Shown piece by piece: positions 6,513-46,700 of a stretch of DNA of 64,000 bases. The notes under the pieces are model-generated. The model worked only from the letters and a program-made list of their open reading frames with translations, made no database searches and was not told the DNA's origin. The stretch covers positions 160,001-224,000 of the forward strand of contig CM000435.1 in NCBI GenBank assembly GCA_000165345.1, written 5' to 3'. The translations under genes were made by a program, and so were the position numbers. How positions within the stretch are numbered: position 1 is the first letter of the stretch; each line of letters starts with the position of its first letter.

Positions 6513-7285
6513 TATATTAAACCTTAATTTTCACTTATTTAACTTTATTTACTCTAGAAGTTAGAACAAAATCTATGGATCTACTTTTTCTAGTATTTAT
6601 TACCTTTCACACAAATTTACTGACTATTTTCCCTCTATTTTTAGATAATGTGCATTGGGGTCTGATCTCTGTGTAAGCCTGCACACAGCGCTCATACATT
6701 TTTTTTTTAGATTTGTTTCGAGGTCCTCGTTTTTTCGTGTAATTTCCGCCGAAATTCTATATTTCCTACCATTATTTTAGAGATTCTTTAAAACTAAATT
6801 TCCTCACACTCAATTTCTTTTTACTATCAATTTTCTTTTTATTTTGGTACCTTTCAGCTCAATCCTACAACAAACCTAGTCTACTACCATTTTTTTTATC
6901 GCTAATATCGATTCTAACATTTATAATATTTAATAAGCCCAACATTAATTCTAGTACTTATTATTTTAAAAGCAAATTTTAAAGCATTAAACTTCTTCTT
7001 TTCTTTTTTTAAATATCCTCCATTATTACTATTACTCCTCCTCCCATATATGCACCCCCCTTGTTCTCTATTTCAAATACTCGTCTAAACCAACCTCGCA
7101 ATTTTATTCTCTATAATGATGCATGCACACACCACGTCTTGTCTACAAAATATGTGCATTTGTGAATAATTCAATTCAGAGAAAATAATAAATAAAGAAG
7201 ATATTGAAAGTTAGCAGTAATTAATTGGAATAAAACAATATATTAGTTAAATTTTTATTAAAAAAAAAAAAAAGAAAAAGATTGT

Positions 7286-7726
7286 TTAAAGTATGGAATC
7301 CTGATTAAAACTGTTAAGATTAGGAATTCTCTGATTTTCGTAGTTGTTAATGATCCAAAACAAAAATCTTTTCTTTAAAACATTTTCTATATTATATTCT
7401 TTTTCAGGTTTAAAAATATAATTATTTGATTTTTTCTCAGTTCCCACACACAAATTCTCAGAATCAACTTGGCGCCAATCCCCAAAATATTTTTTAGAAA
7501 TATTACGTGTCAAAATATTAAATTTTGTTTTTGTAATGTTGGATTGAGGGATACATTCTTGGTTGATGGATTTAATATTCTTAAGTATATCATCAATTTC
7601 TATGTGTTCGTGGAAGTTGTTCGGAATTAAATCTAGGAATTGCTTGTAAACTTCAAGATATTTATCGAGTGTATTTTGTTGAATACCGGTAAAATCTTCA
7701 TTTAAAATCATGCATGAAATATCCAT
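7286..7726 (-). CDS. Hypothetical protein, 146 aa
   Basis: An uninterrupted 146-codon ORF is unlikely by chance in ~75% AT DNA. No recognisable domain. A TTGGCGCCAA site lies inside it (7469-7478), so its coding status is uncertain. Confidence 0.3.
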   Translation of the reverse strand: MDISCMILNEDFTGIQQNTLDKYLEVYKQFLDLIPNNFHEHIEIDDILKNIKSINQECIPQSNITKTKFNILTRNISKKYFGDWRQVDSENLCVGTEKKSNNYIFKPEKEYNIENVLKKRFLFWIINNYENQRIPNLNSFNQDSIL

Positions 7727-12224: not shown

Positions 12225-12529
12225 CTCACTCTAATTATAAACTTACTTTGTGTGAGTGTGATGCAAAAGCTACTCAAATCTATTGGTTTGTAATATTATT
12301 TTTGTAATCTTTATTATATCCTCTGTTCTTGCAAACTCTTAAAATCACTCAAATTAACTTGCAAATAATAAAGTTATCTAAGATACTATTATTTTTAGTG
12401 AATTTCCATCTAATCCAGAAAAAGAAAAATGATTAATCTAACTACTCTCCGAACTCTATTATTTACATTTACACAATTTTTTTTTTTCCCTCTATCAAAA
12501 TTACACCCTACTTTACATGATCTCGGTAC

Positions 12530-12539
12530 TTGGCGCCAA
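12530..12539. promoter_or_regulatory. E2F-like site TTGGCGCCAA upstream of the 8067..12224 gene
   Basis: GC 10-mer in an AT-rich spacer, palindromic GGCGCC core. Confidence 0.45.
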
Positions 12540-14215: not shown

Positions 14216-14509
14216 CATGGCTATCCATTATTTTTTTTTCTGGAGCTAAAAATAAAGCGCATGTATTATAAATTATTGATCAGACTGAATTTAAAAGTAA
14301 ATAAAACTAGAGCCGACTTTTAACTAAAAATTAAATGATCTTCACTCTCAAATCATTTAAATTGCTCTGTTTCTAACATTTTATTAATAACCAATTTTCT
14401 CACTCAAATTGTCTACCCCTCTTTTATTTCAAACTAATCTATTTTTAACCTTTTCAATATTTATTCCGCATTTTTTGTCCCACCGGTACTAAAAAAAAAT
14501 TATACACTA

Positions 14510-16212: not shown

Positions 16213-18285
16213 CTAAATATTGAGAATTGGTTTCGTCCAGAAATCCAATAATGTTGGAGGAGTAAACTTAATCTGATCTTCATTGTTTGGGCCTCCTTTA
16301 TAACAAGAATCACTAATTAATGAGGAATGACTAGTTCCCATATGTATTCCTCGTTTGTGTCCATTGATATGTTCTTGATTCATTTGATGATCTAAATTTC
16401 TTGTATTATGAATTACATTGGGAGTTGAATCAATTCTGTTGCTCATGCTGGAATTCATCCCCATCAATATTGAAAAATTGGTATTAGGCTTTGACTTAGT
16501 ACTGCTACTCGTAGAAGAAGCAGTATTTGTAATATTAATAGCAGTATTAGTATTAGATGTGCCGTTTGAAGTAACTTTAGGTTGGTTTCCATGTCTATGA
16601 GAACTATGCTGATGTTGATGGCTAAGATAGTGTCCATGATTAAGATTATGTCCAATTACAAAGTTCTGAATAGCAACATCTGCATTATGATGAGAATTCG
16701 GAATGTTCGAAAACTGCATTTGTTGTGATGTAGTCTCCGGAATAGAGTCAAATAAGTCGACTCCTCCTCTCAATGACATAGCCTGTACTCCAGAAGAGCT
16801 TCCTCCGCATGATTTTTTATTATATGACATTCCAAATCCCATATTACCTGTGGCAAAATCTGAGTGGTTTGGACTTAAACTACCACTTTGTCCATTGTTA
16901 CCATTTTGGGATTGTTGCTGCTGTTGTTGTTGCTGTTTCTGTTTAGCCCTACTTTTAGCGAGTCTAACTTCAATAGGTCTCTTAGAGTTATCAAATATAT
17001 ATTTCTTGTCAAGAAACATGATCGCGTTTTCTGCCATAAACTTTCTTGGAAAAGTAACAAAAGCAGAACATTTGCTTTGCTTGTTGTTGTCTCTTATAAT
17101 ATGAACTTCATCAACATGGCCAAATTGTTTAAATAGTAAGAGTAATTGGTCTTCAGTGCAATTTTTTGGAAGACTACCAACAAACACCTTAACAGATTCG
17201 CCACATGGCTGAACATCAGGAGAAAGCCCTAACCTCTCAATCTCTCCATCAGCATATTTAACTTGAATCGGTCCAACCTCCTTATCTAAAACAGTTTTAC
17301 CATGGATACAAAGTATCGCATTTTGTGCCTCATAAATGTTAGAAAATCGGACAAAAGCACATCCTTTTGGTCCATTAGAGTCACGAATAATGTTACATTC
17401 AACAACTAGCCCGTATTTATTGAAAATTTTGAGCAACTCTTCATTAGTCATATGTTTTGGAACTCTATTAACAAAAAGTTTAACAGGAGCATAACCTCGT
17501 TTAGATCTTCTCTTGTTATTTTGCTTATTAATGAAACCAATATCCTTGAGCTGATCGCTTGTTAAAGAACTTAAAGAATCACTCTGTCGAATAAATCTTT
17601 CTCTCTTAGGAGAAGACATTCCTCTAACCATATTAACTCCGCAATAATGCGGATGCTTAGAATCGACAATACCTTCAATATTTCCATACTCAATGCAACC
17701 ATTAGATGAACCATATATAAAGCGGCCAGTACTCTCAGTACTTGATCCAGATGAATCACGAGTCAATGAATTGTCTGTATTATAAGTTTCCAATTCATCC
17801 TTATTCTCCAAAAATCTTGCTAAATCACTATTAGATCTAGAGTAGTTAACAGAATTAATACTTCTAGGATAATATGAACATATACCAGGATATTTTGAAT
17901 TATTTGAAAAGTCCATTGTTACTGATCTTTGATATTTAGAAGTATTATCGAAATAACTATCAGTTTCCTTTGAACCAATAAAACTGATATTATCATCTAA
18001 AAAGAGAGTATTTGCATCACGAATACTTTCAACAAATGGATTAAGCTGATCTTCACCCATTGCAGTAATCTGGTCAAAATTCACGAAATAACTCTCTTCA
18101 TTGTTACTGCAAAAAGAAGCTGGAAAACTATTACTCCTGTTAAATAAAGCCTGAGATACACAATTCAAATCTGAAACCATGTGCCTACCTCCTCCAATAT
18201 CTCCTTTTGAAAATCCCTGGCATTTCTTATCACTTATCCAAAATGCTCTACTATCTGTTACATCTCTGTAACTTTGATTGTCCAT
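16213..18285 (-). CDS. CELF/Bruno-like RNA-binding protein with two RRMs, a poly-Q tract and an S/T/N-rich low-complexity tail, 690 aa
   Basis: KLFVNRVPKHMTNEELLKIFNKYGLVVECNIIRDSNGPKGCAFVRFS...PIQVKYADGE parallels CELF RRM1 (KMFVGQVP...SKGCCFVTF...PIQMKPADSEK). The second RRM is VKVFVGSLPKNCTEDQLLLLFKQFGHVDEVHIIRDNNKQSKCSAFVTF. KQKQQQQQQQQSQ is encoded by a CAG/CAA run at about 16900-16940. Confidence 0.7.
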   Translation of the reverse strand: MDNQSYRDVTDSRAFWISDKKCQGFSKGDIGGGRHMVSDLNCVSQALFNRSNSFPASFCSNNEESYFVNFDQITAMGEDQLNPFVESIRDANTLFLDDNISFIGSKETDSYFDNTSKYQRSVTMDFSNNSKYPGICSYYPRSINSVNYSRSNSDLARFLENKDELETYNTDNSLTRDSSGSSTESTGRFIYGSSNGCIEYGNIEGIVDSKHPHYCGVNMVRGMSSPKRERFIRQSDSLSSLTSDQLKDIGFINKQNNKRRSKRGYAPVKLFVNRVPKHMTNEELLKIFNKYGLVVECNIIRDSNGPKGCAFVRFSNIYEAQNAILCIHGKTVLDKEVGPIQVKYADGEIERLGLSPDVQPCGESVKVFVGSLPKNCTEDQLLLLFKQFGHVDEVHIIRDNNKQSKCSAFVTFPRKFMAENAIMFLDKKYIFDNSKRPIEVRLAKSRAKQKQQQQQQQQSQNGNNGQSGSLSPNHSDFATGNMGFGMSYNKKSCGGSSSGVQAMSLRGGVDLFDSIPETTSQQMQFSNIPNSHHNADVAIQNFVIGHNLNHGHYLSHQHQHSSHRHGNQPKVTSNGTSNTNTAINITNTASSTSSSTKSKPNTNFSILMGMNSSMSNRIDSTPNVIHNTRNLDHQMNQEHINGHKRGIHMGTSHSSLISDSCYKGGPNNEDQIKFTPPTLLDFWTKPILNI

Positions 18286-18767
18286 TTTAAATATTCAACA
18301 TCACCAATCCTCTAGCTTTTTTCTTTCGATTCCAGAGCTTTATTGATGTTTCTTTCAACACCTCTCCCAATTAACTAAATCTAAGAGACCAAAAAAAACA
18401 GTTTTCAGCAAGAACTCCCTACTTTATTCCCAATATAAATTAATTTTTTAAATATATTTTTGTTTTTATATTATCGATAAACCGGTAGACGTCTTTAAAT
18501 TAATCCAACTCCTTTGTGCGCCAGAAAACTTTTAAATTAATTTTTTTCCCCATTACATTTTATTAAATATATTATTTTGCCTCTTTAAATAGTCCATTTT
18601 ATTATTTATTAGCGGATTTGTGCATCACTGGCTAACAATCAATTATTGACAATTTTTATTACAAATTTCTATTTCTTGCAAGGCGGGTCCACCCAACAGT
18701 ACCTTATTTACGTTATAACTTTTTCATATACTTTCTCGTAAATTAGTCAAAGGCGCTCGTTCGGATG

Positions 18768-18781: not shown

Positions 18782-19180
18782 AATCAGGCATAACCTTTTA
18801 ATAAAAGAAATATATAATATTGTATACCGGTATTAGTGCATGCACTTAATGGAGTTATTTGCCAATTTTTTTTTTTTTTTGTTCTTTTCTATGAAAAAAA
18901 ATTCTGTATGTGCAATTTGAAGAAAAACGGGGAAATACAAAAATTATGCAGAGTAATAAATTAAAATGTATCTATAAAACTACTATATTACTAATTATAA
19001 TAAAACCCTGAAGTTATTAATACGAAATTAAATTTTGAATTTGAATTCCTGCAATAAGCCTCCATATATTGTAAGCTACCAAGTACTATTTCTATAAATT
19101 GTTGTAAATACGCGCATCAATATATAGAAAATAGTACAATAAACTTGTCTTAGCCTTAATTTGTTGGTTTAGCAATGCTA

Positions 19181-22100
19181 CTAGTTTTGTTTCTCTGTGT
19201 TAATTGCTTCAAGCATAAACTTGGAGCATCTTGGCTGATACTTTTTAATATTCTTATATTTATAATCCAAGATACCAATGTCACTTTGCAGTATACGTGG
19301 ATAGGAAAGCATACTTATGTTCCAGTCTGCATCTTTAGTTGTATTGGTCTGTCTATAGTAATCAGCTTTGTCACATTTTCCAAGTAAAGAGACAATATAA
19401 TTCTGGAAAACTGTGGATACAGGGTCAATTGATGTACCTTTTTGTTTAGAATAGGATATTAATCTGTTGAAAGGTGGTGCTTGGAGTAATAGAATGTATG
19501 ACCTTCTATAGGGGGAATCCATTAAGAAATAATCATAATAGAATTGAACAATATGTTTCTTCTTTAAAGTTCGAATCAAATTACATGATTCATGCTTCCA
19601 ATTATAGTTATATCTCCACTTTGACATTTCCAAGAGAGAAGCTCTGAGATTTCTAATTTGAATCTTCTCTTTTATACAATAATATCTAATAAAATAACTT
19701 TTAACTGAGCTGAATTCTTCCTCAGAAAGCACTTCCTCGCTGTCAATTATATCAGTCTTGAACCTTTTAATGGATGAATTGAGTATTGACAAAAGTGTAA
19801 AGCTATCAAAATGAGATGATAAAATGTAAAGAGTAAATTGGGGAATACTATTCAGCCTGTAGAATGAAACCTCCACTTCTCCCCTTACAGCAAAATTCGA
19901 ATTCAAATTTGGAGGCAAATTTGTATTATTAGAGTGACTTTGGGACATCTCCAGCACCAGCTTTCTTACTATTGAAGAAAAGTACTTCCTGAGTATTCTC
20001 TCCAAAACTCTGGAAGCTACAGTATTGAAGATACACCTTGGCTGTAAACCATCATTTGTCTCCCATTTGTATTCTTTTTCATCTTTAAAGAAAATATCAT
20101 TATCTGAAAGGCTTGAATTAAATCCTGTAGAACTGTTCTTATTACATGGTAACTGGAACCTGATTGAAGCACTACTGGTTGTTAAAATCCCATCAGTAAA
20201 GGTCTGTCTAATTATAAGTGGCTCATCTCCGGCTGAAAATGCAAAATATGGCTCCTGAAGCATGCAAATCTCCTTGTAAGAATCTGGCTTTTCGAAATAT
20301 ATCCAATCCAAAATTGTCTCAGTATATCTTTTGTTGAATTCATCGCTTGTAATACCTAGAACTACTGTCTCCATAAATCCTTTTTGACGTGGCCTGTCAG
20401 AATCTTTATTAAATAAGGTATCGATAATATAGTTGTGAAATGATAAATAGTTGTCATAAGTGATTGAAATACCCGTAGTAATAAAAGATTCATCTTCAAA
20501 ATAGTCCTCATATTGTAATATCCCCTGGTAGTACCGAATAAAGTCCATTGGAGTCCTATTCTTCCTCCTTTTAATCTCATTCTTCATGAAATTACGTAAT
20601 ATCTGATAAAACTTCACAATCTTTAAAGGCTTGAATCTTGAATTCATTTCCTTGAATATTTTTCTCATATATTCAATTAAAGAGCAGCTAGGTCCAACAA
20701 AGTTCAACTCTATTTCATTGTTTCCAATCATTATAGATCCAAAATGAAACGGCTTTGTTAGCGAATCCGAGATTCTCCAATTACCGTACTTTGTACTGCT
20801 ATTATGGGAAAGCTTTTCAAGTATATTCATGTATCCTGGTATAGGCTCACTCTCCAAAAATTTCTCAATTGAAATATTGAAAATATCTGATAATATTTTA
20901 AGCATTATTAACCCTGTATGTCTCTTTGAAATACAATCCACTTCACAAAAACAGTCTTTAAATATTTTACATGGAGACAACTTTGTTCTGATAATGGATC
21001 TCACAAAAACTATTGGAGAATAAAACTTAAAATTCTCAAGCCTGGTAGTTAAGCTTAACTCGTTCTTATAGGAGATTCTTGGATAAGATAACTGCCTGTT
21101 TATAGCTGTAGAATTCTTATAGTATTCGTAGTCTGGAATCAGCATTGAAGTTTCAAAGTTAACTATTCTCTCAGGTAAAGTCCAATTTTCTGAATTGGTA
21201 AAATCTGTAAAATCTTCCTTTAATAGATTGTTTTTCTGGTAGTAGGAACTAAATTGTAAATTCACATATTCGTGATAATTATAAGCTCTAACCTTTAAAA
21301 CAAAATCTGTCCTATATCTGAAATAAGGATCAGTAAAAATTACATTGGCCTTTAACTCCACTATTTTCTTTATAATAAATTCCATTAGAACAAAAACTAT
21401 GCTTCCAGTATCTAATATAGAATTTGCTTTGCTAATCTTTCCTGAATGGTCTGTTCTATAACAATTACACTTTTTCCGTTTCATTATATCACATTCTTTT
21501 GGTAACCTTGTGAGAGATCTATGGATCGAACTTAGAATTAACTGAGGATAGTTCTTGAATAACAATGGATTGTAAATTCTTATTTCATTCTTTATCCAAT
21601 TAGATTCAAGGTTATTAGGCTGGGAAACTTGTATAGGGGTACCACAATTATTTATTGGAGTAGTTAACTGAGTTGGAAGATCTTCATACAAATATTGAAG
21701 ATGCCAATTAATCTCATTTAGTCTTTGTATCTCATCCACAATATCAAATAGTTCTTTGCTTACTTTAAACTCTGGATTGGATTTTTTCCTCCCATTGGTT
21801 CTCTCAAATTGCCTAAAAAGGAAAATACTGTAAGAATAAAAGTCCTCCATTACCTTCCTTGCATTCGAAACCTCCATACTTTTTAAAATAAACCTAAAAA
21901 TCAGCCTCAGCTTTAAAGAAGAGTAGTGTAGCCTCCATGTAAGCTTTAAATCACGTATTATTCCAAGTTCATCTCTTAATCTTTTTACCATTTTAGAATC
22001 CAAAAATAAAGTTGTCACCACATCCATTACTCTAGTCAACGAAATTGAAACTAATTGAGAAATGTTCTTTAACTTTATCTTATAATCAATATCAAGTACG

Positions 22101-23545
22101 CTCTTCTTATAAGAAAGAGGAACTACATTGAATATTTTTATCGTTTTATTTGATTTTCTATCATTTAAATCTACATTTTCATCAAATCCTTGATTCTTAC
22201 TTTCTTCTAACTTTCTTCCATATTTTTTCTTTATTTCAATTTCTTGCATAAACAAATCGTTTTCAATAAATAGTTTTCCCTTATTATCACACTCTGAACT
22301 GAAAGTAGCCATCTCACTTGCTAGTAACTTTTCAAATAATCTGTAATCTAAAGCTGAATCAATATAAAGGTTCATATTTTCAGGTAACCAGTACTTCTCA
22401 TAGTGTTCCTTAATTAGTTGCTTAAGTTCATGTAGCCAATCTTTTAGACTACTAGAAAGGTTAGCCTCTATTATATTGCTTTGAAATGAACAAGAGCTTG
22501 TTGAAAAAAAGTTTAGATACTTTTGCCAGTATGTAGAGAATATTCCACAATTGGAAAAGTAGTCTGAAACTAGATCTTCTTCAACTTTATCCGAAGATCC
22601 AAAACTACTACTCTCTTCTTCTTTGCTCTTCTTTGGATCAATAGCTCTCATACTAGTCTTTATAAAACTGATTCTATATTCCTCATCCCTTAAACAAGAC
22701 TTATAAATATAGTACAGTCTGCATAAAGAATTCAGTAAATTCTTTGTTGTAAGTGGTCTATTCTTGATATAAAACTCTCCATCATCATTTTTACTAGTAG
22801 AAGTCATGTTATCAACGTTTCCAGAATATCCAACAGAATTTATGAATCTTTTTAATGCTTCAATAGCTTTGTCATCTGAAACCGTTACTGTTAGTTTTGT
22901 ATATAAGCTTGAAACAGTTACACTCGTTAAACTATTATCTTTTTGTTTTTCAATATATTCTCCGGAGTTAAATAAATAATTGTCTACTTCAGAAGCCATA
23001 TTTAAGAATATAAAACCCATTAAATAAGTTAAACCTTGGTTATTAATTGGATCGATATTCGATCCAAAAGATAAATATATTGAGAATTCCGTTTTAATTC
23101 TCATAGGAGAATAGTTAATTAATGCAGTAACTCCTGTCTTACAATTTTGTAAAGCAATAAGCTTTTTTTTTGATCCAAGAGGATAATTTATTTCCAATTT
23201 CTTATATTTACCAAAAACAACATTATTTTTCCCATCGAGAGATTCCATAGTCTTAGTATCATTATTAATTGAGGAAGAATTCAATTGTACCTTTGCTATT
23301 TCAAATCCCTCCCAAGGCTCTCCAATAATAAATTTCAAGTTCTCAAGCTCTTGAGTTTTATTATCAAATTGCTTATTAATAAATCCTTCAATGGGAGAAT
23401 AGTACAAAGTCATTTTGTTAGTAAATTCATAATTTTTTGATAAGCATCTTCCAATCAAAGACAAACCCAGACAGATTGAAAGACAATTCAACAATTTTTT
23501 CCAACCACTTGAGCCATTTTGATTCATTCTATATGTCTTTGGCAT
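19181..23545 (-). CDS. Secreted insulinase-like (peptidase M16 fold) protein with a degenerate zinc-binding motif, 1454 aa
   Basis: Signal-peptide-like N-terminus (…KKLLNCLSICLGLSLIGRCLS). GSNIDPINNQGLTYLMGFIFLNMAS aligns to the M16 active-site region [25 protein letters not shown], with HxxEH replaced by YLMGF. Length and organisation fit the expanded apicomplexan insulinase-like families. Confidence 0.5.
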   Translation of the reverse strand: MPKTYRMNQNGSSGWKKLLNCLSICLGLSLIGRCLSKNYEFTNKMTLYYSPIEGFINKQFDNKTQELENLKFIIGEPWEGFEIAKVQLNSSSINNDTKTMESLDGKNNVVFGKYKKLEINYPLGSKKKLIALQNCKTGVTALINYSPMRIKTEFSIYLSFGSNIDPINNQGLTYLMGFIFLNMASEVDNYLFNSGEYIEKQKDNSLTSVTVSSLYTKLTVTVSDDKAIEALKRFINSVGYSGNVDNMTSTSKNDDGEFYIKNRPLTTKNLLNSLCRLYYIYKSCLRDEEYRISFIKTSMRAIDPKKSKEEESSSFGSSDKVEEDLVSDYFSNCGIFSTYWQKYLNFFSTSSCSFQSNIIEANLSSSLKDWLHELKQLIKEHYEKYWLPENMNLYIDSALDYRLFEKLLASEMATFSSECDNKGKLFIENDLFMQEIEIKKKYGRKLEESKNQGFDENVDLNDRKSNKTIKIFNVVPLSYKKSVLDIDYKIKLKNISQLVSISLTRVMDVVTTLFLDSKMVKRLRDELGIIRDLKLTWRLHYSSLKLRLIFRFILKSMEVSNARKVMEDFYSYSIFLFRQFERTNGRKKSNPEFKVSKELFDIVDEIQRLNEINWHLQYLYEDLPTQLTTPINNCGTPIQVSQPNNLESNWIKNEIRIYNPLLFKNYPQLILSSIHRSLTRLPKECDIMKRKKCNCYRTDHSGKISKANSILDTGSIVFVLMEFIIKKIVELKANVIFTDPYFRYRTDFVLKVRAYNYHEYVNLQFSSYYQKNNLLKEDFTDFTNSENWTLPERIVNFETSMLIPDYEYYKNSTAINRQLSYPRISYKNELSLTTRLENFKFYSPIVFVRSIIRTKLSPCKIFKDCFCEVDCISKRHTGLIMLKILSDIFNISIEKFLESEPIPGYMNILEKLSHNSSTKYGNWRISDSLTKPFHFGSIMIGNNEIELNFVGPSCSLIEYMRKIFKEMNSRFKPLKIVKFYQILRNFMKNEIKRRKNRTPMDFIRYYQGILQYEDYFEDESFITTGISITYDNYLSFHNYIIDTLFNKDSDRPRQKGFMETVVLGITSDEFNKRYTETILDWIYFEKPDSYKEICMLQEPYFAFSAGDEPLIIRQTFTDGILTTSSASIRFQLPCNKNSSTGFNSSLSDNDIFFKDEKEYKWETNDGLQPRCIFNTVASRVLERILRKYFSSIVRKLVLEMSQSHSNNTNLPPNLNSNFAVRGEVEVSFYRLNSIPQFTLYILSSHFDSFTLLSILNSSIKRFKTDIIDSEEVLSEEEFSSVKSYFIRYYCIKEKIQIRNLRASLLEMSKWRYNYNWKHESCNLIRTLKKKHIVQFYYDYFLMDSPYRRSYILLLQAPPFNRLISYSKQKGTSIDPVSTVFQNYIVSLLGKCDKADYYRQTNTTKDADWNISMLSYPRILQSDIGILDYKYKNIKKYQPRCSKFMLEAINTEKQN

Positions 23546-23950
23546 GTATTATTTACAAACTTAGCTTATTAAATTAAAAAAAAAGTTAAGGTTCTAATTA
23601 GTTTTAACCGACAGTTTCTGTGTCAAAAAATACAGACTATTCGGAAATTTTATTCCTTAATTTCAAGAAACTGTCAATTTTCATTAGAAATTAATTAATT
23701 AAATTTTATTATTTTTTTTAATTATTTTGAAAATTACGTGTGCAATATAATTTTTTTTTCAACCCCACATTGACAACTTTTTCATTTTGACACCGGTAAC
23801 TGCGTATATACCGGCATACATGCAAAAAAAGTATTAGTAAATTTGAATGAAAAAAAAAATAAATAAACAAATATAATAATTAAATGACGTGTAAAATTTT
23901 AGACTAGATTAAAAATAGAATTTGATTGTAGTTGTTTTAATTCAAAGATT

Positions 23951-27002: not shown

Positions 27003-27522
27003 ATTTATCAAAAGCATTCATAACTATGTTCTTTTATTCTTTCTCTATACAAATTTTAACATTTTTCTACTTTATTAAAAAGAGGTAATTAATAAAGATC
27101 CCTTATCTGGAGAAACTTCCTTGAAAAATAATGGGAGAAATATATTGTTTCGGTACATATCTCTTTGATTAGTCATTATTTGTCTAAATTCTAAATTTAC
27201 TTACAAAGTTCGGACTCGTGTAATCTATGATTTTTTCTTTTTTTCATAGCTTTGTCTGTTCTGAAGCTAATAATTAAATAAGATCTACATTTGAATGTAA
27301 ATCCGCAAGGGAAAGGCTTGAATCGCTCACTTTAAGCCTGAAAAAAAAAATCGCATTATATTATATATTTATCTCTCTAATTATTCCTTAAAATTACTAA
27401 TATATACTCTCATATAAAATTTAACTAAAGCCTTATTTAACTTAATTATACATTTTCCTATCAAAAAAAGATCGCAGGTAATATTTCTAAAATACGTGCA
27501 ATAAATATAAATGCAATTGACT

Positions 27523-27535
27523 TTGGCGCCAAAGT
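27523..27535. promoter_or_regulatory. E2F-like site TTTGGCGCCAAAG, about 145 bp upstream of ATG 27679
   Basis: TACGTGCA at 27494-27501 lies just upstream. Confidence 0.45.
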
Positions 27536-27678
27536 ACCGAATCTGGATATACATGTAAAAGTAAAGATTATTGTGTGGAAGAAGGAAAAAAAATCTTGAA
27601 TTGAGATTAGAACTAGTTTTAATACTATTTTGTTAACTTAATAAGATCTAAAGAGAGAGTTCTCGGAAATTTGAAGCA

Positions 27679-29237: not shown

Positions 29238-30185
29238 ATGCCAAAGGGCTTGGATGTATATCTGGACTCTTTAAAATTGGACAGAGAGATATCTACTTTG
29301 TTAGAATGCAAGACTCTTTCTGAAAATGAAGTAAAACAATTATGTGAATTAGCAAAAGATATTCTAGAAGAAGAACAAAATGTACAGCAAATTGGACTTC
29401 CACTAACTGTTGTGGGTGACATACATGGGCAATTCTTTGATCTTAAGGAAATTTTTAGGATTGGTGGGGTTCCTCCAGAAACCAATTTTTTGTTTCTTGG
29501 TGATTATGTCGATAGAGGTTATTATTCCGTTGAATCTGTGACTCTTATTGTAGCCCTGAAGGTTAGATATAGAAATAGAGTCTTCCTTATCAGAGGTAAT
29601 CATGAAAGTCGTCAAATTACACAGGTTTACGGATTTTATGACGAGTGTCTACGGAAATATGGAACTCCAAATGTATGGAGGTATTTTACTGATCTTTTTG
29701 ATTATCTTCCACTCTCAGCATTAATTGACAATAAGATTTTTTGCCCACATGCAGGTTTATCGCCGAGTCTCCCTAGCTTAGACTCTATTAAAAGCTTGGA
29801 TAGGATTCAGGAAGTTCCTCATGAAGGGCCAATGTGTGATCTTTTATGGTCAGACCCTGATGAACGTTATGGCTGGGGAGTATCTCACAGAGGTGCAGGA
29901 TATACTTTTGGGGAAGATGTGAGTGAAATGTTTAATCATACAAATAATTTACAATTAATCTGTAGAGCCCACCAGCTAATTCTGGATGGATATCAATGGT
30001 CTCATAATAAGAATGTTGTGACCGTTTTCTCAGCTCCTAATTACTGCTACAGGTGCGAAAACCAGGCGGCTATCTTAAGAATTGATGATTTGGGAAATTT
30101 TACATTTCTCCAATTTGACCATGCGCCTGAGAAGGTACTTCCGAGACAGGAAAACCAGCTTCCAGTTCCGGACTATTTTGTTTAA
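29238..30185 (+). CDS. PP2Ac: Serine/threonine protein phosphatase 2A catalytic subunit (PPP family), 315 aa
   Basis: [98 protein letters not shown] and C-terminal DYFV are near-identical in pattern to PP2A-C (..TPDYFL). Confidence 0.92.
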
Positions 30186-30681
30186 TCAAATTTATTTTTT
30201 TTTCTTATTCCAACTACAATCTTTCTCAGATAATTCGCTTCTAATATTTATAAGTATTTTATATGGGTTGATTTCAAAACAATCCTATTGATTTTTCATT
30301 ACCTATTGTTGATAAATAAATCGGTACCAGATAACTTGTTTATATTAACTTGAAATTATATCATTAATTTTTTAATTTATTTCGAATATATCTATTTTTT
30401 TTTTTGTCTTTTTGATTTATTTTTCTCTTAAAATCCATGCATCGCCGGTATGTAAAACTATTTTTCCCAATGCATGCAGATTTAATGTGGACGATTACGT
30501 GTCAAAATTTTTGTTAATAATTATTGGAGAGAAGAACGAATGTGTATGTAATTCATCAATGGAAATAAAAATTATTTGATTAATGTAGAAAATGAAAGAG
30601 GGTATGAAATAGTGATTTAATAACTAAAATTAAGTTTATAAATGTTTAAATATAGTAGAACTTATAACATTATATAAATTA

Positions 30682-34707: not shown

Positions 34708-34911
34708 ATTGCAATAAGCATCAGTATTACACTATTTATAAAGGTATTGGCTATCTAATATTTAACGTATATTACTAATTCTAGAAAAGGTTTACAGGGT
34801 CATTCATTAACATTAGTTTTTCTTTTTTTTTTAGCTCGATTATTATTTCCACATGAAATATGTATTATTTTTCTATTACCGGTGTTTATTTTTAATTATT
34901 TAAAAAATGTT

Positions 34912-34994
34912 TGCATGTATTAAATGTGCATGCAACTGCTATTTAAACCCAATTGCATGTGGACAATTAATAATTAAGAAAAAGTTGCATGCAG
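34912..34994. promoter_or_regulatory. Cluster of GCATGC-type boxes (TTGCATGT, GTGCATGCAA, TTGCATGTGG, TTGCATGCAG), 270-350 bp upstream of the Patched-like gene
   Basis: Four (T)GCATG(C/T) boxes within about 80 bp. TTACCGGTG at 34877-34885. Confidence 0.4.
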
Positions 34995-35259
34995 TAAAAT
35001 TTGACAGAAAGTAGTTTAAATAAAAAAAAATTTTTTTCTGTTATGAAAGAATAAAAAAAATAGTTTTTAAGCTATAAAGTATCAAAGAATAGAGTCATAA
35101 TTGGCTTGGATTATTTATGAATAGGAGAAATTAAATAATCTGACTATATAATAAAAATTAAGAAAATCATTAATAGGTTAAACAAATTTTCACATGAAAT
35201 AATAGGGGATAACGTCATTTTATGTAAAGGAAATCTCTTGAAAAAGAAAGGTTTCTCAA

Positions 35260-38200: not shown

Positions 38201-39900
38201 AGAAGAATGAACATAATAAAGCTAAACATGAAAACCAATCTCAAGGAAAAAAATTGATCCCAAATTTCGCTGATATTCTAGATACGAGATTACTTAATTA
38301 CAAAAGAGGAAGATCTAATGCTCATAGTTCTATTCAACTCACTGAGAATATTGAAGTTTCTGATTATACTGCGGAACAACTTAAAAAAGATAAAGGAATG
38401 GTTTCAAAAAGCCAAACTGAAAGTTCGTTGTTAAGTTCTCCAAATTCGGGAGGGTCATATTTCTCAGAAAGCAAACTTCAACTAACTAATTCCGACTTTA
38501 CATCCTCAAGTTCTTCATCAGAATCTGAAACCAGCTCATCAGGGTCTGAATTAACCGTTTTCCCAATGGAAGCAAAACAAAATATTGGTCGAAAAAGTCG
38601 AAGATTTGTAATTAAATATTATGCGACTTTTCTTACAATGACTTCAACAAGAGTGATTATACTCATCCTAGCATCGATCTTCCTAGCTGTCTCAATCTAT
38701 TCTTCAATCAAGCTTAAAATGGGACTTGACTTAAAGGTTTTAGCTCCTCCAAGTTCCCAGGTTTACAAGTTTTATGTTAACCATGAGCAATTATTCAATA
38801 AGTACGGAGATGTCACATATATGATGTTTCAGGCTACACAAAAGTTAGGAGACAATAATAATAGTAATAACAATAACTGGTGGGAAGAATCATTTATTCG
38901 TGATTACAAAGAATTACAAACAAAGATACATGATTCTTGGTTTACCGAAATTAAACTTGATGGTATGGTTGCTTTCTATGATTCTTTATTAATTAAAGGA
39001 CTCCCAAAGAATTCTGTCGAATATTCAAAGATGCTTAAAGCATTTATTAGTTCCCCATACAATCGTCACTTTGAAGATGATTTTGTTTTTAATCAAAATA
39101 CTGGAGAATTAGAGGCTTGGAGGTCTGTATTGATTCCAATTTATCTTCCGGATACCTCTGTTAGAGGAAAGTATATGACTGATATAAGAAAGATTATGGG
39201 ATCTGTACCAGGAGTGAAAAATCCAATTGCTTACAGCCCCTTGTTTATATTTTATGAAAGTGACGTATCCATACTTCCTCAAACATTATATAATATGGGA
39301 TGTGCTTTAATTGCAGTTTTACTTGTAAGTTTCATATTTATTAATTATAAAAACAATTTATCTCATTAAATTTTAATCTTCAGGCTTCTTTAATATTAAT
39401 GCCAAGTATATCTTCAGTTATTATTGTTATTATTATTCTATGTATGGTGGATGTATGTATTATTGGAATGATGGCACAATGGGGGCTTCAGTTAAACATG
39501 CTTACAATGGTTAATTTGATTATGTCTATTGGTATTTCTGTTGATTATTCTACCCATATTTGCCATTGTTTTGCTCATTGTTCTGGTAAAGATAGAAATA
39601 CAAGAGTTATTGAGACTTTGGGTAAGTTTTAAGAAATGCAAATTATTACTATAAATATTACTAAATCTCTTTTTAACTTAAGGATTAATGGGAATTCCAA
39701 TTTTCCACGGTGCAATGTCAACTCAATTTGCAGTAACTGTATTGGCATTTTCAGATTCATATGTACTTCAGACATTCTACAAAATGATGACTTTGGTTGT
39801 TTGTATTGGAATTTGTTATGGAGCTATTATTCTTCCAGTTATTCTTACAGTTTTTGGTCCAATGGATGTTATTAAATACACTAAAGCTGAACATAAATAA
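35260..39900 (+). CDS. Patched/NPC1-family (RND-type) membrane protein with a sterol-sensing domain, 4 exons: join(35260..35647, 35723..39324, 39384..39621, 39683..39900)
   Basis: The SSD core is ...GVCGAIAALLAFIGGAGLCYLAGLEHTSTASAAPFLVLGVGMDDSFVVINSF... (GxDD motif). The C-terminal transporter half is ...MAQWGLQLNMLTMVNLIMSIGISVDYSTHICHCF... and ...GIPIFHGAMSTQFAVTVLAFSDSYVLQTFY...ILPVILTVFGP. Three GTAAGT donors (35648, 39325, 39622) and TAG/CAG/AAG acceptors (35722, 39383, 39682) join the four listed ORFs in frame; phases checked by codon counting. Confidence 0.65.
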
Positions 39901-40466: not shown

Positions 40467-40507
40467 TATACCGGTAATTAATTCAAATGCATCAGCGCGC
40501 CAAAAGA
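40467..40507. promoter_or_regulatory. TATACCGGTA box plus E2F-like variant CAGCGCGCCAAAAG upstream of the UTP10 gene
   Basis: TATACCGGTA at 40467-40476 and GCGCGCCAAAAG at 40496-40507, 225-265 bp upstream of ATG 40731. Confidence 0.35.
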
Positions 40508-40730
40508 GGTATCGAGAATTTTATAAATGTCAATAAAAAACTGGAAAATAGATTATATTTTTCTTTTCAATATATTTTTTAAATAAGAATAAAGAAAAGT
40601 AGAAGCTTAAACAGGTAATAAAGAAGAAGTATCTCTTTTGAGTCTTTGTTAAGAATTAGAGTTTTATGAGTAATTACCAATACAAAAAAATTAAGTATTA
40701 GAGGTGAAAGGAAGAAAATAATATATTATA

Positions 40731-43700
40731 ATGTCTACAGAGTTACAGAAACAGATAAATTTTCAGTTAAGAAACAATGAATTAACTTTCTTATCTCAGA
40801 GGGCTCTGAAAGTGAACAGAAACAAAAAAGAAAGAATTTCTTTTCTTTTTGATACTAGTAATACAGAATTTCATTCAAGAAAGGGACTTAAACCTGATAA
40901 TAGGATCCCAATTTATGAAGATCTTGGAAGATTAAGATACCTTGCTGAACAGGGACTCATGGAGTTAGAGTCTCTAAATCCAAGAATTTCTCATGAATCT
41001 TTTAATGAATTTTTTGAGAATACTGATGTTCCTTCAATTCAAATGTTGACAAAACAAGAAGCTGGTGAGATGTTAAGAAAGTTGGAAAGATTAATAGATT
41101 TTTTGGTACCTTATTTTCTATTGGAATCTGCAAAAATTTGCATAGAGTATTTAATTCAGGCTTATGATATCAATGTTTTATTGGGTGAATATCTTTTTTA
41201 CTCTTTTCTGCCCTACCACGATATGGCAGAATTTTGTCAATTAATTAGAACTTTGGATATACCAGAAAACAGTGAGATCAAAGGTTTGGTTGACTCAATT
41301 AAGACAACAAGAACCGTAATCACTTCTAGAAGTTATCTTTCTTCAATTTTAATCAGAAATCCAGCTTTGTTTAAGAATATTGTCATATTTTGGGAGAAAA
41401 GATTAGAAACATTTCAATTAACTAAGAATATACCATTAACTAACTTAATAACTTGGTTAGTTATTGAAATTATTGAGGACTTATCCAGATCTAAAGATTT
41501 AAAGAATCTTCATATTTTTCTTGAAAGTATTATTGAAATTATTATTTTTGGTACTTGTTTAAAAGGATCTCAATATGAAGAGTTAAGATCTACAGGATAT
41601 TGTATACTATATAAATTATCAACACCTCTTCTTTCTCTCTCAAATGAAACTCAGGTTAGAATTATTGATGAACTTTTCAAATCTATTTCAAGAAATCAAA
41701 CATATTCACCAAATTACCTTTCTGAGACAATTCTATTAATGAATCATATCTTAACTCAATTTGGAACTTTGACTCATTATGAATATTTAGATCATGAAAT
41801 ATCTGAATTTATTATAGAGAATCAAGCTATTTTTATCAGTGCTTTTAAACAATTATCAGAATGGGAAAGTGATTTTCTACAAATCCTTGCTTTGATTACT
41901 AAATCGATCATCAATTTTGGGGTTAATCAAGATCAAAGTTTTTCAAGACCTTGTCTTAACTTTTTTGAAAGTATCTTAAATTGTTTAGGGAATTCATCTT
42001 CCCTATTATTAATGGATGAAAGACAATCTAAAATGATTAAAGTTATTATTCTAAGCTTAATAGACGTTTACTCTCAAGATCAAATTCAAAATCCATTTTT
42101 TGGAAATATTATTAAAATTCTTCATACAAATTATCCATCTGAACTACTTTCTGCTCTCAGCTTTTCTTTAAATGTTTCTTCATCTCCACAATCACAATTA
42201 TTTGAACTTAAAGAAAAGGCTCAAATGTTTGTGGATATTGTTCTTAAAGAAGAAGAAGAAGCAAAAAGTGATTCTGGTATATTACAATCTAAAGAAGGAG
42301 AAAGTTCACGTATGTTCTTAACTTTACTAAATAGTCAAGACAAATCAGTATTAAATTCTTGTTTGGATATGATTATCAATTTGATAAAGAAATCTTCAAA
42401 GAATCCCAGTGAAATAACTCAATTTGAGAAGAGAGTATTTGAATTATCATTAAGACATTTCCTCGGTTCCTTTAATGATGAAAGTGGTAAACAAAATAAC
42501 TTTGGCGAGGAATATGCTTTAAAAATTTTAAGCTTACCTCAAACAATCGAAATTTCAAAATTTTTAGATCTTGAAGATATCCCGTCTCAAGATCAAGGCC
42601 ATCGTGATCTCCAAAAACAATGGAGAGTTAATTTGATTTTTAAGAGTTTTCTATTTTATTTTAAATCCAAAATAACATCAGGATATTCTACTCTTATAAA
42701 ATATTTTTCAAAAGAAATTTCATCCGAATTAAACTTGAAGGATCATCAAAATGGTAACTTTAATATTGAAGCTATGATTATGGAATCTACATTTTCTCAT
42801 ATATTTGGTCAAAATTTTGAGACAAATCTTATGGATTTATTTAAAAGTTTTTCTATTATTCTTGAAAATGATACTTTTGAGCTGAAGAATCAAATGAATA
42901 ATTTGGATGTAATTCTAATGGAGAATTCAGATATCTTTATTCCTCTATTCACCTTAATTTCACATGAAAATCTTTCATTTTCTCAAGATCTCAAAAAATC
43001 TTCAACTAGATTACTTGCTTTAATGTATAAGAATGATCAAATCAATACCTATTTTAAGCAAATCCTATTTAAATCAAGCGTAAACTGTTTGGAAATTTCT
43101 TTAATCTTATTATCACTGAAGAAGCTTAATTTAGATCTTAGATCTAGTTATCTCCTACCTAACCACTCATTTTCAAAGTTTGGAATTTATTTAAATAATG
43201 ATCAAGAAATTATCAGTCTATTGGAAACTTTATATTACAAATTTTACTATTATATCAGTTCCGCAATAAGACCACTCAAGAATGATAAAAAAATATCCAA
43301 TCAATTAGTTGGTATTTATATTTTAATTATATTCAGATCTACTTTACAAATTGTCTCATCTAGACGAGATCATTTCATTTTATATTATAAATTATTGAAT
43401 ATTTCCTTGGTGGATACTTTAGATATTGGAATTCTTTCAACAAATCATTTGGGATTACCATTGTTTCAAATGATTAATTCTTGTTTTGATTCTAATAATG
43501 AAAAAAAGAATAAAAAGATCTCAATTTTGGTTATCAATCTTACAAGGAACTTATTCAACATTTTGTCTCAAAGTGGGTCAGCATCATTTAATTTAGATTA
43601 TCTTAATAATGATCAATCATATTCAATATTTTATGGAAAGAATGTATATTTAGATACATTAATAAGTCATAGTTATTCTTTTCTGGAAATAATTACTTCA

Positions 43701-46700
43701 AAGTTACCAGTTCTACAAGATTCAAAGAATAATACATTTTCTGTCTCAAATTTACTTGAGATCTTATATAGTATTTTATCTTATGCAATTATTCCAGCTT
43801 TCTTAGATCAAAAATCTATATCTATAAAAATGGCATCTTTTAGGCTTTGTAAAGCAATACAAGATAAATTAAATCCAATTAATATCGAAAAAGTATTTGG
43901 GAATTCAAATTTGAAGTTTTCTGATATTTTATTAAGCTATAATAATTCTAATGATACCGGTACCGATTTTAATTATACAAATAATCATTTAAGATCATGT
44001 TATTTAAATAAATTTGGTCCAAAAATTCATCAAGTTTTAGAGGTTATTGATTCATTACTAAATCATCAATCTGAAGTTATTGTTGAAAATAATTTTCAAA
44101 ATCTTTTTGAAATTATTTTTAAAGATAATAATAAATCTATTAATATACCCGGTACCTTATTAATGTTAAATTTGGTAATGACCTTTGAAATGGCTTTTAC
44201 TAGTAAATTTATTCAAAAAATTGATTTAAATTATACACTTTTATCAGATTATGTGAGAAAGAACTTTATTTTTGGCAGTATTGATTCAAATTATCATGAG
44301 ATCTTGATAAATATTTCTAAAAGTTTCTTAATTAAAAATGAATATATCGATCATCATATTATTATTGGATTATCATTCTTAAAACAAGGGATCGATAATT
44401 TGGTTGATTATATTGATAAACAAGAACAAATTGATACAATAAAAGAACTAATACTCGAATATTTGAATGTTATTCAGAGATTTGAAAAAGAATTCCAATA
44501 TTTTGTTTTGATCAAAGAAAGTAATTTGGCTAAACAAGTTTTCTGTGAAATATTATTAACATTTTTAAATGAGAAGATTACCCAATATCTGAAAAGTGAT
44601 CATGAATTTGCTTCTTTTGTCGTTGGAATAATTTCTCAAATTATACAATATTCTCCAGAAAGCATTAAAAAAGTATCTTTATCTCAATATATTCAAAGTA
44701 AATCATTGGAAAGATTGGATCTTTTGATTTGTAGTTTATTGGAATATTGTTTAAAAGATGAACATTCTAAAAGATCAAATTCTAATTTCAAATTAAATAA
44801 TGATTCAGATACCGTATTTAATGAGCAAATAATCTTGGAATGGATTTATTGTGATTTGAATCTAGTTAATATTGAAATCTTGAATGATCAAAAAGAAGTT
44901 GAATATACATTTAATAAAGATCTTATTTGTCAAACTTTAAGATATTTAGAAATTAATAGAAATAGATTAAAAAGAAATCATCATGAAGAAATGGATCTTG
45001 ATATTCTATTTAAGACTGAGATTTACTTGATTAGAATATTAGATTTTGGAATTAAACTGAGATATACTCAATTTAAAGATTTAGAACCAATTTTGAATTA
45101 CTTTGAAATTACTGAAGAAACTAATAATAGAGTTGAAATCTCCAAGTTTATTTTAAATCCTATGATCATATCTTCAATTACAAGTCTTTTTTCAAGTATT
45201 AAAATAAAATCAAAGAATAAAGACTCAATGGATCACTCAAAATCATACTTTAAAATTTGTAAGATCTTATTTTCTATTTATATGAATTTGGCAAAAAATA
45301 CACATGGTGGTATCGATCAAAAGAATTATACAATAAAATCAACATTTTATTCTTTGAATCTATTTGTTAACCATAGCTTACAAGATTGTATATATTTTGA
45401 TCATTCTAGTAAAGAAAGAATGAAAGGTATCTTATTCAAGATCTTAATAAGTGAACAAATTAAAGAGATTGTTGAGACAAATAAATTTAATCAAATACAT
45501 GAGATACTTGATTTTATGGAGAAACTTCATAATGATGTTATTTATTGCCAAAACGTACATAGATTTAAAAAGAGTCAAGGAATTTTCATGATCATTAGAT
45601 ATTATCTAAATATGAACCAAGACTCTCAATCTGAAGATCTTGAACAATTAATTAAACATCTTTTGAAGAATCAATTATTTGATACAAGAACAAATGTTTA
45701 TAAGGATTTACTTCTTAATGTTCAAAATGAAATGGAAATTTTAATGAAATTTGAAGATCATGATCATAATAATCATGGATTTGAAACAAGAAAAGTTATT
45801 CTTGAGAATCTTATATTAATGACAAAAACTATCATTTATTTCTTAAATAAAACTTTATTAACTACAGAAATAAAATCAAATGAATCTCAAGATTTACTTG
45901 AATTATTTGATAGCTTAATTTTAATTAAAACTTTAATGAATAAAAAAATCTTAAAAAAACTCGGTACCGTACTAAAAAATAACGAGACAGATCTTGAAAT
46001 GAATGAAAAACTTAAATCCAGAATTGACAAATTAGAAAAAGAGTATTTAATCAATTCAATAGGATTGGATAAAGATTTTCAACATTATGATAATGAGGAA
46101 TATGTTATTAAGACTATTCAAAAAGATATTGATCAATTAATTCAAAGTATTATTGAAGATGATAGTATGAAGAAATATCTTATTGTTCATTGGGATTTAT
46201 CTAAAGATTCAGGTTTTGAAGTTTTAAAGAATTTAAGAAAAAGATTCTATTCTTTATTAATAAGTAATAAAATTGATTCTTTGGGTATTATTTTAAAAGA
46301 ATCTTTAGATAAGAAGCTTAAAATTTCTATAGATTTTAGATCTTCTTCAATTAATAATCATGATCAAGTAAAACAAGAATCTAATGTATTTAATACAATA
46401 CAATATCTTTTAGATATTATGATTTCTAGTAAAGAATTTAAAAATTCATTCAAATATAGATCAAAAACCCAAAAAGATCTTCATGTATTAGATGAGAGTA
46501 TGGATACTGGTACTGAATCAGAAAGTGAAGAAAATGAAAAAGAAGATTTGAGATCAAAGTTGAAGTTATGGATCAAAAATTGGTATATTATAGATTTAAT
46601 TCTCAAAGTTGTTAAAACACAAGGAGAAGAAAGACAAAAAGATCAATTTAATAAATTAATCTTTTCAAAAATTATGAGTTTCTATAATAGTCAAGAAAAT

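Follow-up and report, generated by a model that had tools for sequence, protein, structure and literature searches.

TACCGGY, a conserved and apparently undescribed intergenic sequence element in Cryptosporidium

The analysed region

The window analysed in this study, a stretch of 64,000 nucleotides of Cryptosporidium parvum (positions 160,001 to 224,000 of contig CM000435.1, assembly GCA_000165345.1), carries genes for an RRM protein, an M16/insulinase-like protein, HEAT-repeat protein 1 (UTP10) and eIF2A (Table 1). A short sequence element, TACCGGY, recurs in its intergenic spacers. The gene map was taken from the public annotation of the C. parvum chromosome record CP141124.1 and from orthologous loci, and it bears out the labels given to these four genes in an original prediction made from the nucleotide sequence. 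The 1454-aa protein encoded at 19181-23545 on the minus strand has an identical copy on CP141124.1 and is named C. parvum Iowa II in the protein collection.

For the counts by region the window was divided into its coding part, 48.4 kb, and its intergenic part, 15.6 kb. Its G+C content is about 30%, and its A+T content of about 70% is lower than the approximately 75% originally assumed. For comparison, syntenic regions were included from C. sp. chipmunk genotype I (chipmunk genotype in the following), C. ubiquitum, C. canis, C. felis, C. bovis and C. muris, whose protein identity to C. parvum ranges from 82% down to about 36%. Furthermore, 9 kb of C. parvum sequence past the right end of the window (the extension), 3.8 kb of it intergenic, served as an independent sample.

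Definition and enrichment of the element

The original prediction was based on the 8-mer TATACCGG, for which four copies in intergenic spacers had been claimed. Exactly four copies are present (18823, 23807, 40467 and 52736, all on the plus strand), with the flanking bases quoted correctly, and all of them are intergenic according to the public C. parvum annotation and the orthologues. The claimed excess over chance was confirmed, with 0.29 copies expected and none of 100 dinucleotide-preserving shuffles reaching four. The common strand has no meaning with respect to the genes, since three of the flanking genes lie on the minus strand and one on the plus strand.

Because TATACCGG had been picked after reading the sequence, all 8-mers of the window were ranked without prior choice. 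In this ranking TATACCGG took rank 64, and TACCGGTA (5 observed, 0.096 expected) and ATACCGGT (6 observed, 0.23 expected) took ranks 11 and 12. The words ahead of them were of the E2F, GCATGC and poly-A kinds, together with some coding-repeat words, e.g. GATGATGA. According to these ranks the signal is centred on TACCGG and not on the TATA prefix. The true unit is shorter and sharper than TATACCGG and consists of TACCGG followed by T or C (TACCGGY), with TACCGGTA as the full palindrome; TATACCGG as the unit had to be given up, its leading TA varying between species at conserved sites.

TACCGGY matches the window 18 times compared to 1.25 times in shuffled sequences, none of the 100 shuffles reaching 18. 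In the intergenic DNA, 15 matches to TACCGG were found at 12 sites where 1.17 were expected (12.8-fold, p = 3e-12), and in the coding DNA 5 where 1.6 were expected. The same intergenic calculation gave a 16.7-fold enrichment for GCATGC and a 34-fold enrichment for TGGCGC. Under order-1 as well as order-2 backgrounds TACCGG is the seventh of 1736 intergenic hexamers, outranked only by E2F, GCATGC and poly-A words, and its Bonferroni-corrected p value is about 5e-9.

The word is sharply delimited. Its one-base variants (AACCGG, TTCCGG, TACCAG, TACCCG, TATCGG etc.) are all at background in the intergenic DNA, and the base that follows intergenic TACCGG is T or C in 14 of 15 matches (T 10, C 4). 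Intergenic CCGG is flanked by TA in 12 of 16 cases, and three of the other four belong to E2F-like GC clusters. When 51 oriented instances of seven species are pooled, TACCGG is followed by T 34 times, by C 15 times, by A twice and never by G; the preceding base is variable. Recurrent longer forms are TATACCGGCAT, TTACCGGTGTC and TACCGGTAAT. As sequences for comparison, TACAGGTA was named as the contrast word for the palindrome TACCGGTA, and TATACCGGCATGCA and TTACCGGTGTC as box-carrying sequences to be contrasted with CC-to-AA mutants.

Both CCGG occurrences in the intergenic part of the extension belong to the 11-mer TATACCGGCAT, which is also the form of the focal copy upstream of the M16-like gene (2 observed, 0.35 expected, in a small sample), and one of the two abuts GCATGC (TATACCGGCATGC). 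Intergenic TACCGG is also enriched in the chipmunk genotype (8.5-fold), C. ubiquitum (7.5-fold), C. canis (5.2-fold), C. bovis (3.5-fold) and C. muris (15-fold); the enrichment at the single C. felis locus was not significant.

Two extensions of the family were rejected. The words TACCAGTA/TACTGGTA are in excess (9 observed, 1.1 expected), which represents a codon effect since all nine copies are coding. A wider TACCG(G/A) family including GTACCGA was abandoned as well, TACCGA not being significantly enriched in intergenic DNA (5 observed, 2.3 expected). The conserved copies of GTACCGA are a separate element attached to E2F sites. This fusion of an E2F site with GTACCGA, located at approximately 12505-12535 and 27520-27545, is apparently a distinct composite element and not a TACCGG variant; TTGGCGCCAAGTACCGAGATCATGTAAAG is invariant in C. 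parvum, the chipmunk genotype, C. ubiquitum and C. canis, and ATTCGGTACTTTGGCGCCAAAG is kept in three of these four.

Conservation across Cryptosporidium

For a formal test all 16 spacers between 12 kb and 58 kb of the window were aligned for C. parvum, the chipmunk genotype, C. ubiquitum and C. canis, and the invariant C. parvum copies of each hexamer were counted. TACCGG is invariant at 4 of its 13 copies, namely box A at 23809 and the boxes at 18481, 34877 and 40469, the background invariance of intergenic hexamers being 2.7% (p = 3e-4, for TACCGG as a prior hypothesis). It ranks sixth of 1633 hexamers, in the company of TGGCGC (13/21), TGTGGG, GGCGCC, GGCGGG and CATGCA (5/32). TACCGGY is a phylogenetic footprint, more conserved than the surrounding spacer. 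The box is kept at orthologous positions in species whose proteins are only about 45% identical, including C. canis with its G+C content of 46%, and in C. bovis and C. muris boxes occur in some orthologous spacers whose sequence no longer aligns.

Neighbouring motifs and position relative to genes

GCATG lies within 25 bp of 6 of the 12 intergenic TACCGG sites, compared to 0.96 expected from uniformly sampled intergenic positions (p = 2e-4); for the proximity of TGCAT the p value is 0.002. The E2F control showed no association, the GGCGC core being found within 25 bp of one of the 12 sites. The element had been proposed to stand apart from the E2F and GCATGC families, which is correct for its sequence but not for its location, as it is not spatially independent of GCATGC. 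If TACCGGY is read forward, the GCATG element lies 2-35 bp away on its 3' side at 7684, 18825, 23809, 30445, 34877, 40469 and 50529, and likewise at many orthologous or independent sites in the other species. No GCATG was found within 100 bp of the boxes at 18481 and 14482.

The distance from a TACCGGY site to the closest start codon downstream is 180-390 bp, with the site in either orientation to the gene, and in tandem spacers the box is often nearer to the upstream stop codon (109-172 bp) than to the downstream ATG. For the 14482 box the two neighbouring start codons are 181 bp and 316 bp away. The originally proposed distance of 260-550 bp from a start codon does not apply to the box at 30445, which is situated between converging 3' ends. 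The latter and a box at position 7426 of the extension, likewise in a converging 3'-3' spacer (between an RRM and a Seipin gene), both lie within conserved promoter-like clusters of GCATGC/GCATGCA, G-box and ACGTGT; the two spacers span 30185-30681 of the window and 6633-7693 of the extension. These clusters suggest unannotated transcription units, e.g. antisense long non-coding RNAs, which are known to be common in C. parvum (PMC7840661).

Two further words were observed in the conserved blocks. ACACGT(AA)/TGACACGT words (11 observed, 1.3 expected in intergenic DNA; hexamer rank 8-10) are found at 23736-23743, in the XPD/Metallophos spacer (30185-30681) and at 7350-7440 of the extension, and may represent a further uncatalogued motif with an ACGT core. 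TGTCAA(T/A), with 19 intergenic copies compared to 6.8 expected, recurs in conserved promoter blocks (GGTGTCAAAATG, TTGTCAATGTGGGG, AAATGTCAATAAAA) at approximately 23770-23790, 40520-40535 and 18600-18620.

Individual boxes

Table 1. Genes and TACCGGY boxes in the window (. denotes a palindromic site).
Feature	Position	Strand	Context
Palindromic TACCGGTA	7684-7691	.	40 nt inside 146-aa open reading frame (7286-7726, -)
TACCGGT (AGTACCGGTGGGAC on - strand)	14482-14488	-	divergent spacer, 387-aa gene / SRP9
RRM protein (RRM/CELF-like)	16213-18285	-	public annotation; ATG at 18285
TACCGGT (GACGTCTACCGGTTTATCGATAAT on - strand)	18481-18487	-	197 bp upstream of RRM/CELF-like ATG 18285
Palindromic TACCGGTA, the 18823 copy	18825-18832	.	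lineage-restricted
M16/insulinase-like protein	19181-23545	-	public annotation; ATG at 23545
Conserved promoter block of M16-like gene, ~100 bp	23733-23830	-	five-species alignment
Box B, TACCGGT (TTACCGGTGTC on - strand)	23792-23798	-	inverted relative to box A, 18 bp apart
Box A, TACCGGC (TATACCGGCAT), focal copy	23809-23815	+	266 bp upstream of M16-like ATG 23545
TACCGGC (ACATACCGGCGATGCATGG on - strand)	30444-30450	-	converging 3'-3' spacer, Metallophos (+) / XPD (-)
TACCGGT (TTACCGGTGTT)	34877-34883	+	381 bp upstream of Patched/NPC1-like gene
Palindromic TACCGGTA, the 40467 copy	40469-40476	.	260 bp upstream of UTP10
HEAT-repeat protein 1 (UTP10)	40731-49061	+	public annotation
TACCGGC	50529-50535	+	320 bp upstream of 259-aa gene; TGCATGCATGC at 50545-50555
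eIF2A	50640-52400	-	public annotation
TACCGGC, the 52736 copy	52738-52744	+	inside inverted repeat TAGACG (52730-52735) / CGTCTC (52744-52749)

The conserved promoter block of the M16-like gene reads, towards the gene, GCATGT, box A (ATGCCGGTATA), box B (TTACCGGTGTC), TGTCAAAATG, TTGTCAATGTGGGG (G-box), an A-run and TGCACACGTAAT, boxes A and B being located at its distal end. CATGCA follows at 23819-23824, 4 bp further 3' of box A. Box A is present in C. parvum, the chipmunk genotype, C. ubiquitum and C. canis and lost in C. felis (CCGATAC), and box B is kept as TTACCGGTG in C. parvum, C. ubiquitum, C. canis and C. felis, the chipmunk genotype reading TTACCGTTG. In C. bovis TATACCGGCAC is located 236 bp upstream of the ATG of the M16-like orthologue. 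A c-Myb site (YAACKG) derived from CAGTTACCGG at 23792 was considered and rejected, its CAGTTA part being unconserved and only TTACCGG being kept.

The M16-like gene is followed directly after its stop codon by a hairpin (19075-19180 of the window, minus strand; 14368-14480 of the chipmunk genotype locus). In the chipmunk genotype it is very strong, at -64.6 kcal/mol (z = -11), and carries TACCGGC in each arm; the hairpins of C. parvum (z = -2.2) and C. ubiquitum (z = -1.4) are weak, and the sequences are unrelated.

The 18481 box (TCTACCGGT) belongs to a strongly conserved block with an E2F-like TGGCGC at a distance of 35 bp, and TCTACCGG is invariant in C. parvum, the chipmunk genotype, C. 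ubiquitum and C. canis. At the UTP10 promoter four species share TACCGG(T/C)AAT(T/A)AATT, upstream of which nothing more can be aligned in C. canis, and the leading TA differs between the species (ATATACCGG, ACATACCGG, TAATACCGG, AAGTACCGG). This box is followed on its 3' side by ATGCAT at 40487-40492 and an E2F site, GCGCGCCAAAA, at 40495-40505; in C. bovis GTACCGGTT lies 335 bp upstream of the UTP10 gene.

At 34877 the sequence TACCGGTG is invariant in four species and several GCATG elements follow at 34913-34959. The TGT-Patched spacer of C. muris holds two boxes (CCGGTATCAATATACCGGTAATTATCTGCATGCA) and GCATGCA. In the window the TGT-Patched spacer contains CCACATGAAAT twice (34848-34858 and approximately 35195-35210), invariant in four species, and CACATG is among the most conserved intergenic hexamers (three of four copies invariant). 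The Patched/NPC1-like gene itself runs past the stop codon of its long open reading frame at 39369 via a short intron and ends near 39900, as the stretch 39370-39900 is coding-like and aligns to nothing in the orthologous spacers, and the orthologues are 1464-1540 aa long.

The remaining boxes are less widely kept. The 30444 box reads CATACCGG in C. parvum and C. ubiquitum and CATACCGAC in the chipmunk genotype; in C. canis and C. felis a box is found elsewhere in the same Metallophos-XPD spacer. The 50529 box is kept in the chipmunk genotype, C. ubiquitum reading CATACCAGTT and C. canis differing. Conservation of the 14482 box is uncertain, with an aligned copy in C. canis (TATACCGGTATAG) and none in the chipmunk genotype and C. 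ubiquitum. TGCATGCA is found at 18837-18844, 5 bp further 3' of the 18825 box, which is absent in the chipmunk genotype (AAGCTG at the aligned positions) and in C. ubiquitum (CAGCCT).

In the divergent spacer at eIF2A the arms of the inverted repeat at 52730-52749 (TAGACG-N8-CGTCTC) are kept in four species and its centre, which holds the 52738 copy, varies (TATACCCGG, GGGCCCGG, CAGTCCAG), so that this copy is probably a different element. In sequence the repeat arms are similar to WTAGACR and VYGTCBC, motifs 18 and 17 of Oberstaller 2013. Of the four TATACCGG copies, only those at 23807 and 40467 are conserved and those at 18823 and 52736 are not. The related ACCGG boxes reported at the same time are present at 14482, 23792, 30445 and 34878; the word at 53033 (AACCGGG) lacks TACCGG, shows nothing conserved at the aligned positions and is no member.

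The 7684 copy may be coding or non-coding, as it lies 40 nt after the ATG of a small open reading frame. This 146-aa frame has no Pfam match, has a plausible coding composition, is located in a 1.55-kb spacer between two annotated genes and may be an unannotated small gene.

Proposed function and alternative explanations

TACCGGY is sharply specific, enriched in intergenic DNA, conserved at orthologous positions and paired with GCATG, and it appears to be a real, conserved and so far undescribed cis-element. We consider it probable that it is a genuine cis-acting intergenic DNA element of Cryptosporidium, most likely the site of a sequence-specific DNA-binding protein; its binding by a protein, its effect on transcription and the responsible protein family are what we infer from the sequence. 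This protein presumably acts on DNA since its site, a palindrome or a word without fixed orientation, is found in the midst of promoter motifs, so that the element would function in either orientation within compact promoter modules. As TACCGGY usually lies 2-35 bp 5' of a GCATG/TGCATGCA (AP2_1) element, the likely mechanism would be a cooperative or combinatorial promoter occupancy together with a GCATGC-binding ApiAP2 factor. A non-AP2 factor, e.g. of the Myb or zinc-finger type, is somewhat more likely to bind TACCGGY than an AP2 domain. The abstract of a 2014 paper on AP2 proteins reportedly states that many over-represented upstream motifs are no AP2 motifs.

A more far-reaching scenario, which we regard as doubtful, would make TACCGGY the third major promoter word of the genus beside E2F and GCATGC, bound by a non-AP2 factor (e.g. 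a Myb-type general factor) that marks the distal boundary of short promoters and cooperates with GCATGC-binding AP2 proteins. Surveys based on expression clusters and on peaks of the assay for transposase-accessible chromatin (ATAC-seq) would then have missed the word because it is not tied to an expression pattern. Factor and site might even be ancient in the clade of stramenopiles, alveolates and Rhizaria (SAR), since TACCGGTA is a predicted promoter motif in oomycetes as well.

Several points weigh against a function of TACCGGY as a protein-binding cis-element. Its function is deduced solely from sequence statistics and conservation, and the C. parvum DNA examined amounts to approximately 73 kb of one chromosome, i.e. 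about 0.8% of the genome, plus the orthologues. Nine of the 13 aligned copies are not invariant across the four species, and the result of 4/13 fails a Bonferroni correction as a de novo search (3e-4 x 1633), being valid only for a prior hypothesis. The uniformly sampled positions used for the proximity to GCATG are a lenient null model if all motifs cluster in promoter cores, an objection that is disfavoured by the lack of proximity in the E2F control. Furthermore, the two converging 3'-3' spacers hold boxes where no promoter is annotated. Finally, the word went unreported in three genome-wide motif studies: neither the 25 motifs (11 families) in Table 1 of Oberstaller 2013 nor Mullapudi 2007 include it, and the motif analysis of the peaks in a 2025 sporozoite ATAC-seq preprint returned E2F and poly-T only. 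Either the cluster-based and ATAC-peak designs missed TACCGGY or the word is less general than this region suggests.

An origin of the pattern from chance, base composition or a dispersed repeat is extremely improbable. The choice of TATACCGG after reading, its low rank among the window 8-mers and the lack of conservation of two of its four copies would fit such an origin, which is however opposed by the corrected p value for intergenic TACCGG, by the background level of its one-base variants, by the conservation at orthologous positions and by the recurrence in the independent 9 kb. As the flanks of the copies are unrelated, the boxes are no repeat family. It also seems very improbable that TACCGGY is an RNA-level signal, i.e. 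an element of the 5' or 3' untranslated region in the transcript of a neighbouring gene. Several sites 109-360 bp past a stop codon could fall in 3' untranslated regions, but the box, where it is not a palindrome, is found in both orientations to each of the flanking genes and sits amid DNA-level promoter motifs (E2F, GCATGC, G-box), and Rfam and ARAGORN detected no RNA family or tRNA in the window or the 9-kb extension. Taken together, statistics, unrelated flanks, conservation and mixed orientations contradict an explanation by chance, by a repeat or by an RNA element.

A general regulatory or boundary factor similar to Reb1, which would keep a nucleosome-free region open and, the genome being very compact, block read-through from the gene upstream instead of acting as a stage-specific activator, appears unlikely. 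It would be in line with the orientation independence of the box, its occurrence in front of unrelated housekeeping genes (RRM, peptidase-like, NPC1-like, UTP10, eIF2A side), its frequent proximity to the upstream stop codon in tandem spacers, its presence in converging spacers and its omission from the reports of expression-linked, cluster-based motif finders. In three of the four conserved promoters the box furthermore lies at or near the distal edge of the conserved block, being the 5'-most alignable element at UTP10 and preceded only by GCATGT or the CCACATGAAAT word in the other two. This positional behaviour is compatible with a Reb1-like site, the TACCCG core itself being at background. 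However, both sites in converging spacers are part of full promoter-like modules, which argues for unannotated promoters and not for terminators (cf. PMC7840661), the box at the RRM promoter is proximal and not distal to the E2F site, and only E2F and poly-T motifs were reported for the sporozoite ATAC-seq peaks.

That TACCGGY is an ApiAP2 site, recognised either by an AP2 domain with TACCGG specificity or by a GCATGC-binding AP2 protein through its second domain or a partner (bipartite TACCGGY-N-GCATG), is in our view rather improbable. The tight and polar pairing with GCATG/TGCATGCA elements would be explained, and multi-domain effects are conceivable. Four of the 18 C. parvum AP2 proteins tested on arrays are listed as not binding DNA (PMC12246861) and might have such a specificity. 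In contrast, these arrays yielded AP2_1-like, AP2_2-like, GTGTGT, GCGTGCA, AAAA or G-box motifs and no CCGG-type primary motif among the 18 proteins, so that the AP2-type site suggested by the original prediction is unsupported. Furthermore, the 2014 AP2 paper (Oberstaller 2014) contains no CCGG, ACCG or CGGT word, and the boxes at 18481 and 14482 stand without a nearby GCATG.

Gene regulation in Cryptosporidium is poorly understood, and in the current catalogue of six motif families (PMC12246861) the E2F and AP2 types are the only ones with an assigned factor. A sharply defined and conserved word such as TACCGGY offers a concrete handle towards a new DNA-binding protein and could aid the annotation of promoters, including those hidden in converging spacers. 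Judging from the steady pairing with GCATGC, AP2_1 sites seem to be recognised jointly with a partner, and this could help to explain why several AP2 proteins that share the GCATGC specificity act on different genes.

Comparison with known motifs

Only two abundant motifs are said to be reported in the abstract of Bankier 2003. The catalogued upstream motifs of C. parvum comprise E2F (TGGCGCCA), AP2_1 (TGCATGCA), G-box, AP2_2 (GCACAC), GAGA and CAAT-box (reviewed in PMC12246861), the primary sources being Bankier 2003, Mullapudi 2007 and Oberstaller 2013. Like these motifs TACCGGY is short, often palindromic, enriched in intergenic DNA, located in compact promoters and conserved across the genus, and its enrichment (12.8-fold) and conservation (31%) in the window lie between those of the E2F words and CATGCA. 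It is rarer than the E2F words, and its sequence is unrelated to all six families and to the 25 motifs of Oberstaller 2013. It lacks the GCGC/GGCGG core ([A/T][C/G]GCGC[G/C][A/T], TTTGGCGGGAAA) of the E2F-like family as well as the TGCAT/GCATGC core of the AP2_1 family, and it is a frequent neighbour of GCATG and not a variant of it. Since the word is found neither among the six families listed by the 2025 review (PMC12246861) nor in Oberstaller 2013 and Mullapudi 2007, the original view that it is not a described Cryptosporidium upstream motif holds. A search of the full-text literature for Cryptosporidium together with ACCGGT, TACCGG or CCGGTA returned primers and unrelated papers only.

Among other eukaryotes three systems offer a comparison. 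The plant dehydration-responsive element/C-repeat (DRE/CRT) TACCGACAT is bound by DREB-type AP2/ERF domains, to which the apicomplexan AP2 domains are related. It differs by one base from the recurrent extended form TACCGGCAT found at 23809 and in the extension. The corresponding TACCGA is not significantly enriched here, and no C. parvum AP2 protein is reported to bind such a word.

Yeast Reb1 is a Myb-type general regulatory factor with the site TTACCCGG (TTACCCG core). The two words are similar (TTACC-GG compared to TTACCCGG), and TACCGGY resembles the Reb1 site by analogy in its independence of orientation and in its placement upstream in promoters, at gene ends and in front of unrelated genes. 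It is however one base shorter, and since the Reb1 core TACCCG is not enriched in the intergenic DNA (1 observed, 1.17 expected), the two are not the same word and the likeness is an analogy only.

The palindrome TACCGGTA is also known as M94 of Phytophthora infestans, where it was predicted with high confidence as a promoter motif (Roy, Kagda and Judelson 2013, PMC3597505). It recurs in Plasmopara halstedii as streme-5 ATACCGGTAT, which has been described beside the oomycete motif-9 GTACCGGTA (PMC10031896). We regard this match as a lead and not as evidence of common descent, and it may be a coincidence. The palindromic octamer is identical in Cryptosporidium and in this other lineage of the SAR clade; the oomycete motif was found via its stage-specific over-representation, whereas the conserved unit in Cryptosporidium is the half-palindrome TACCGGY.

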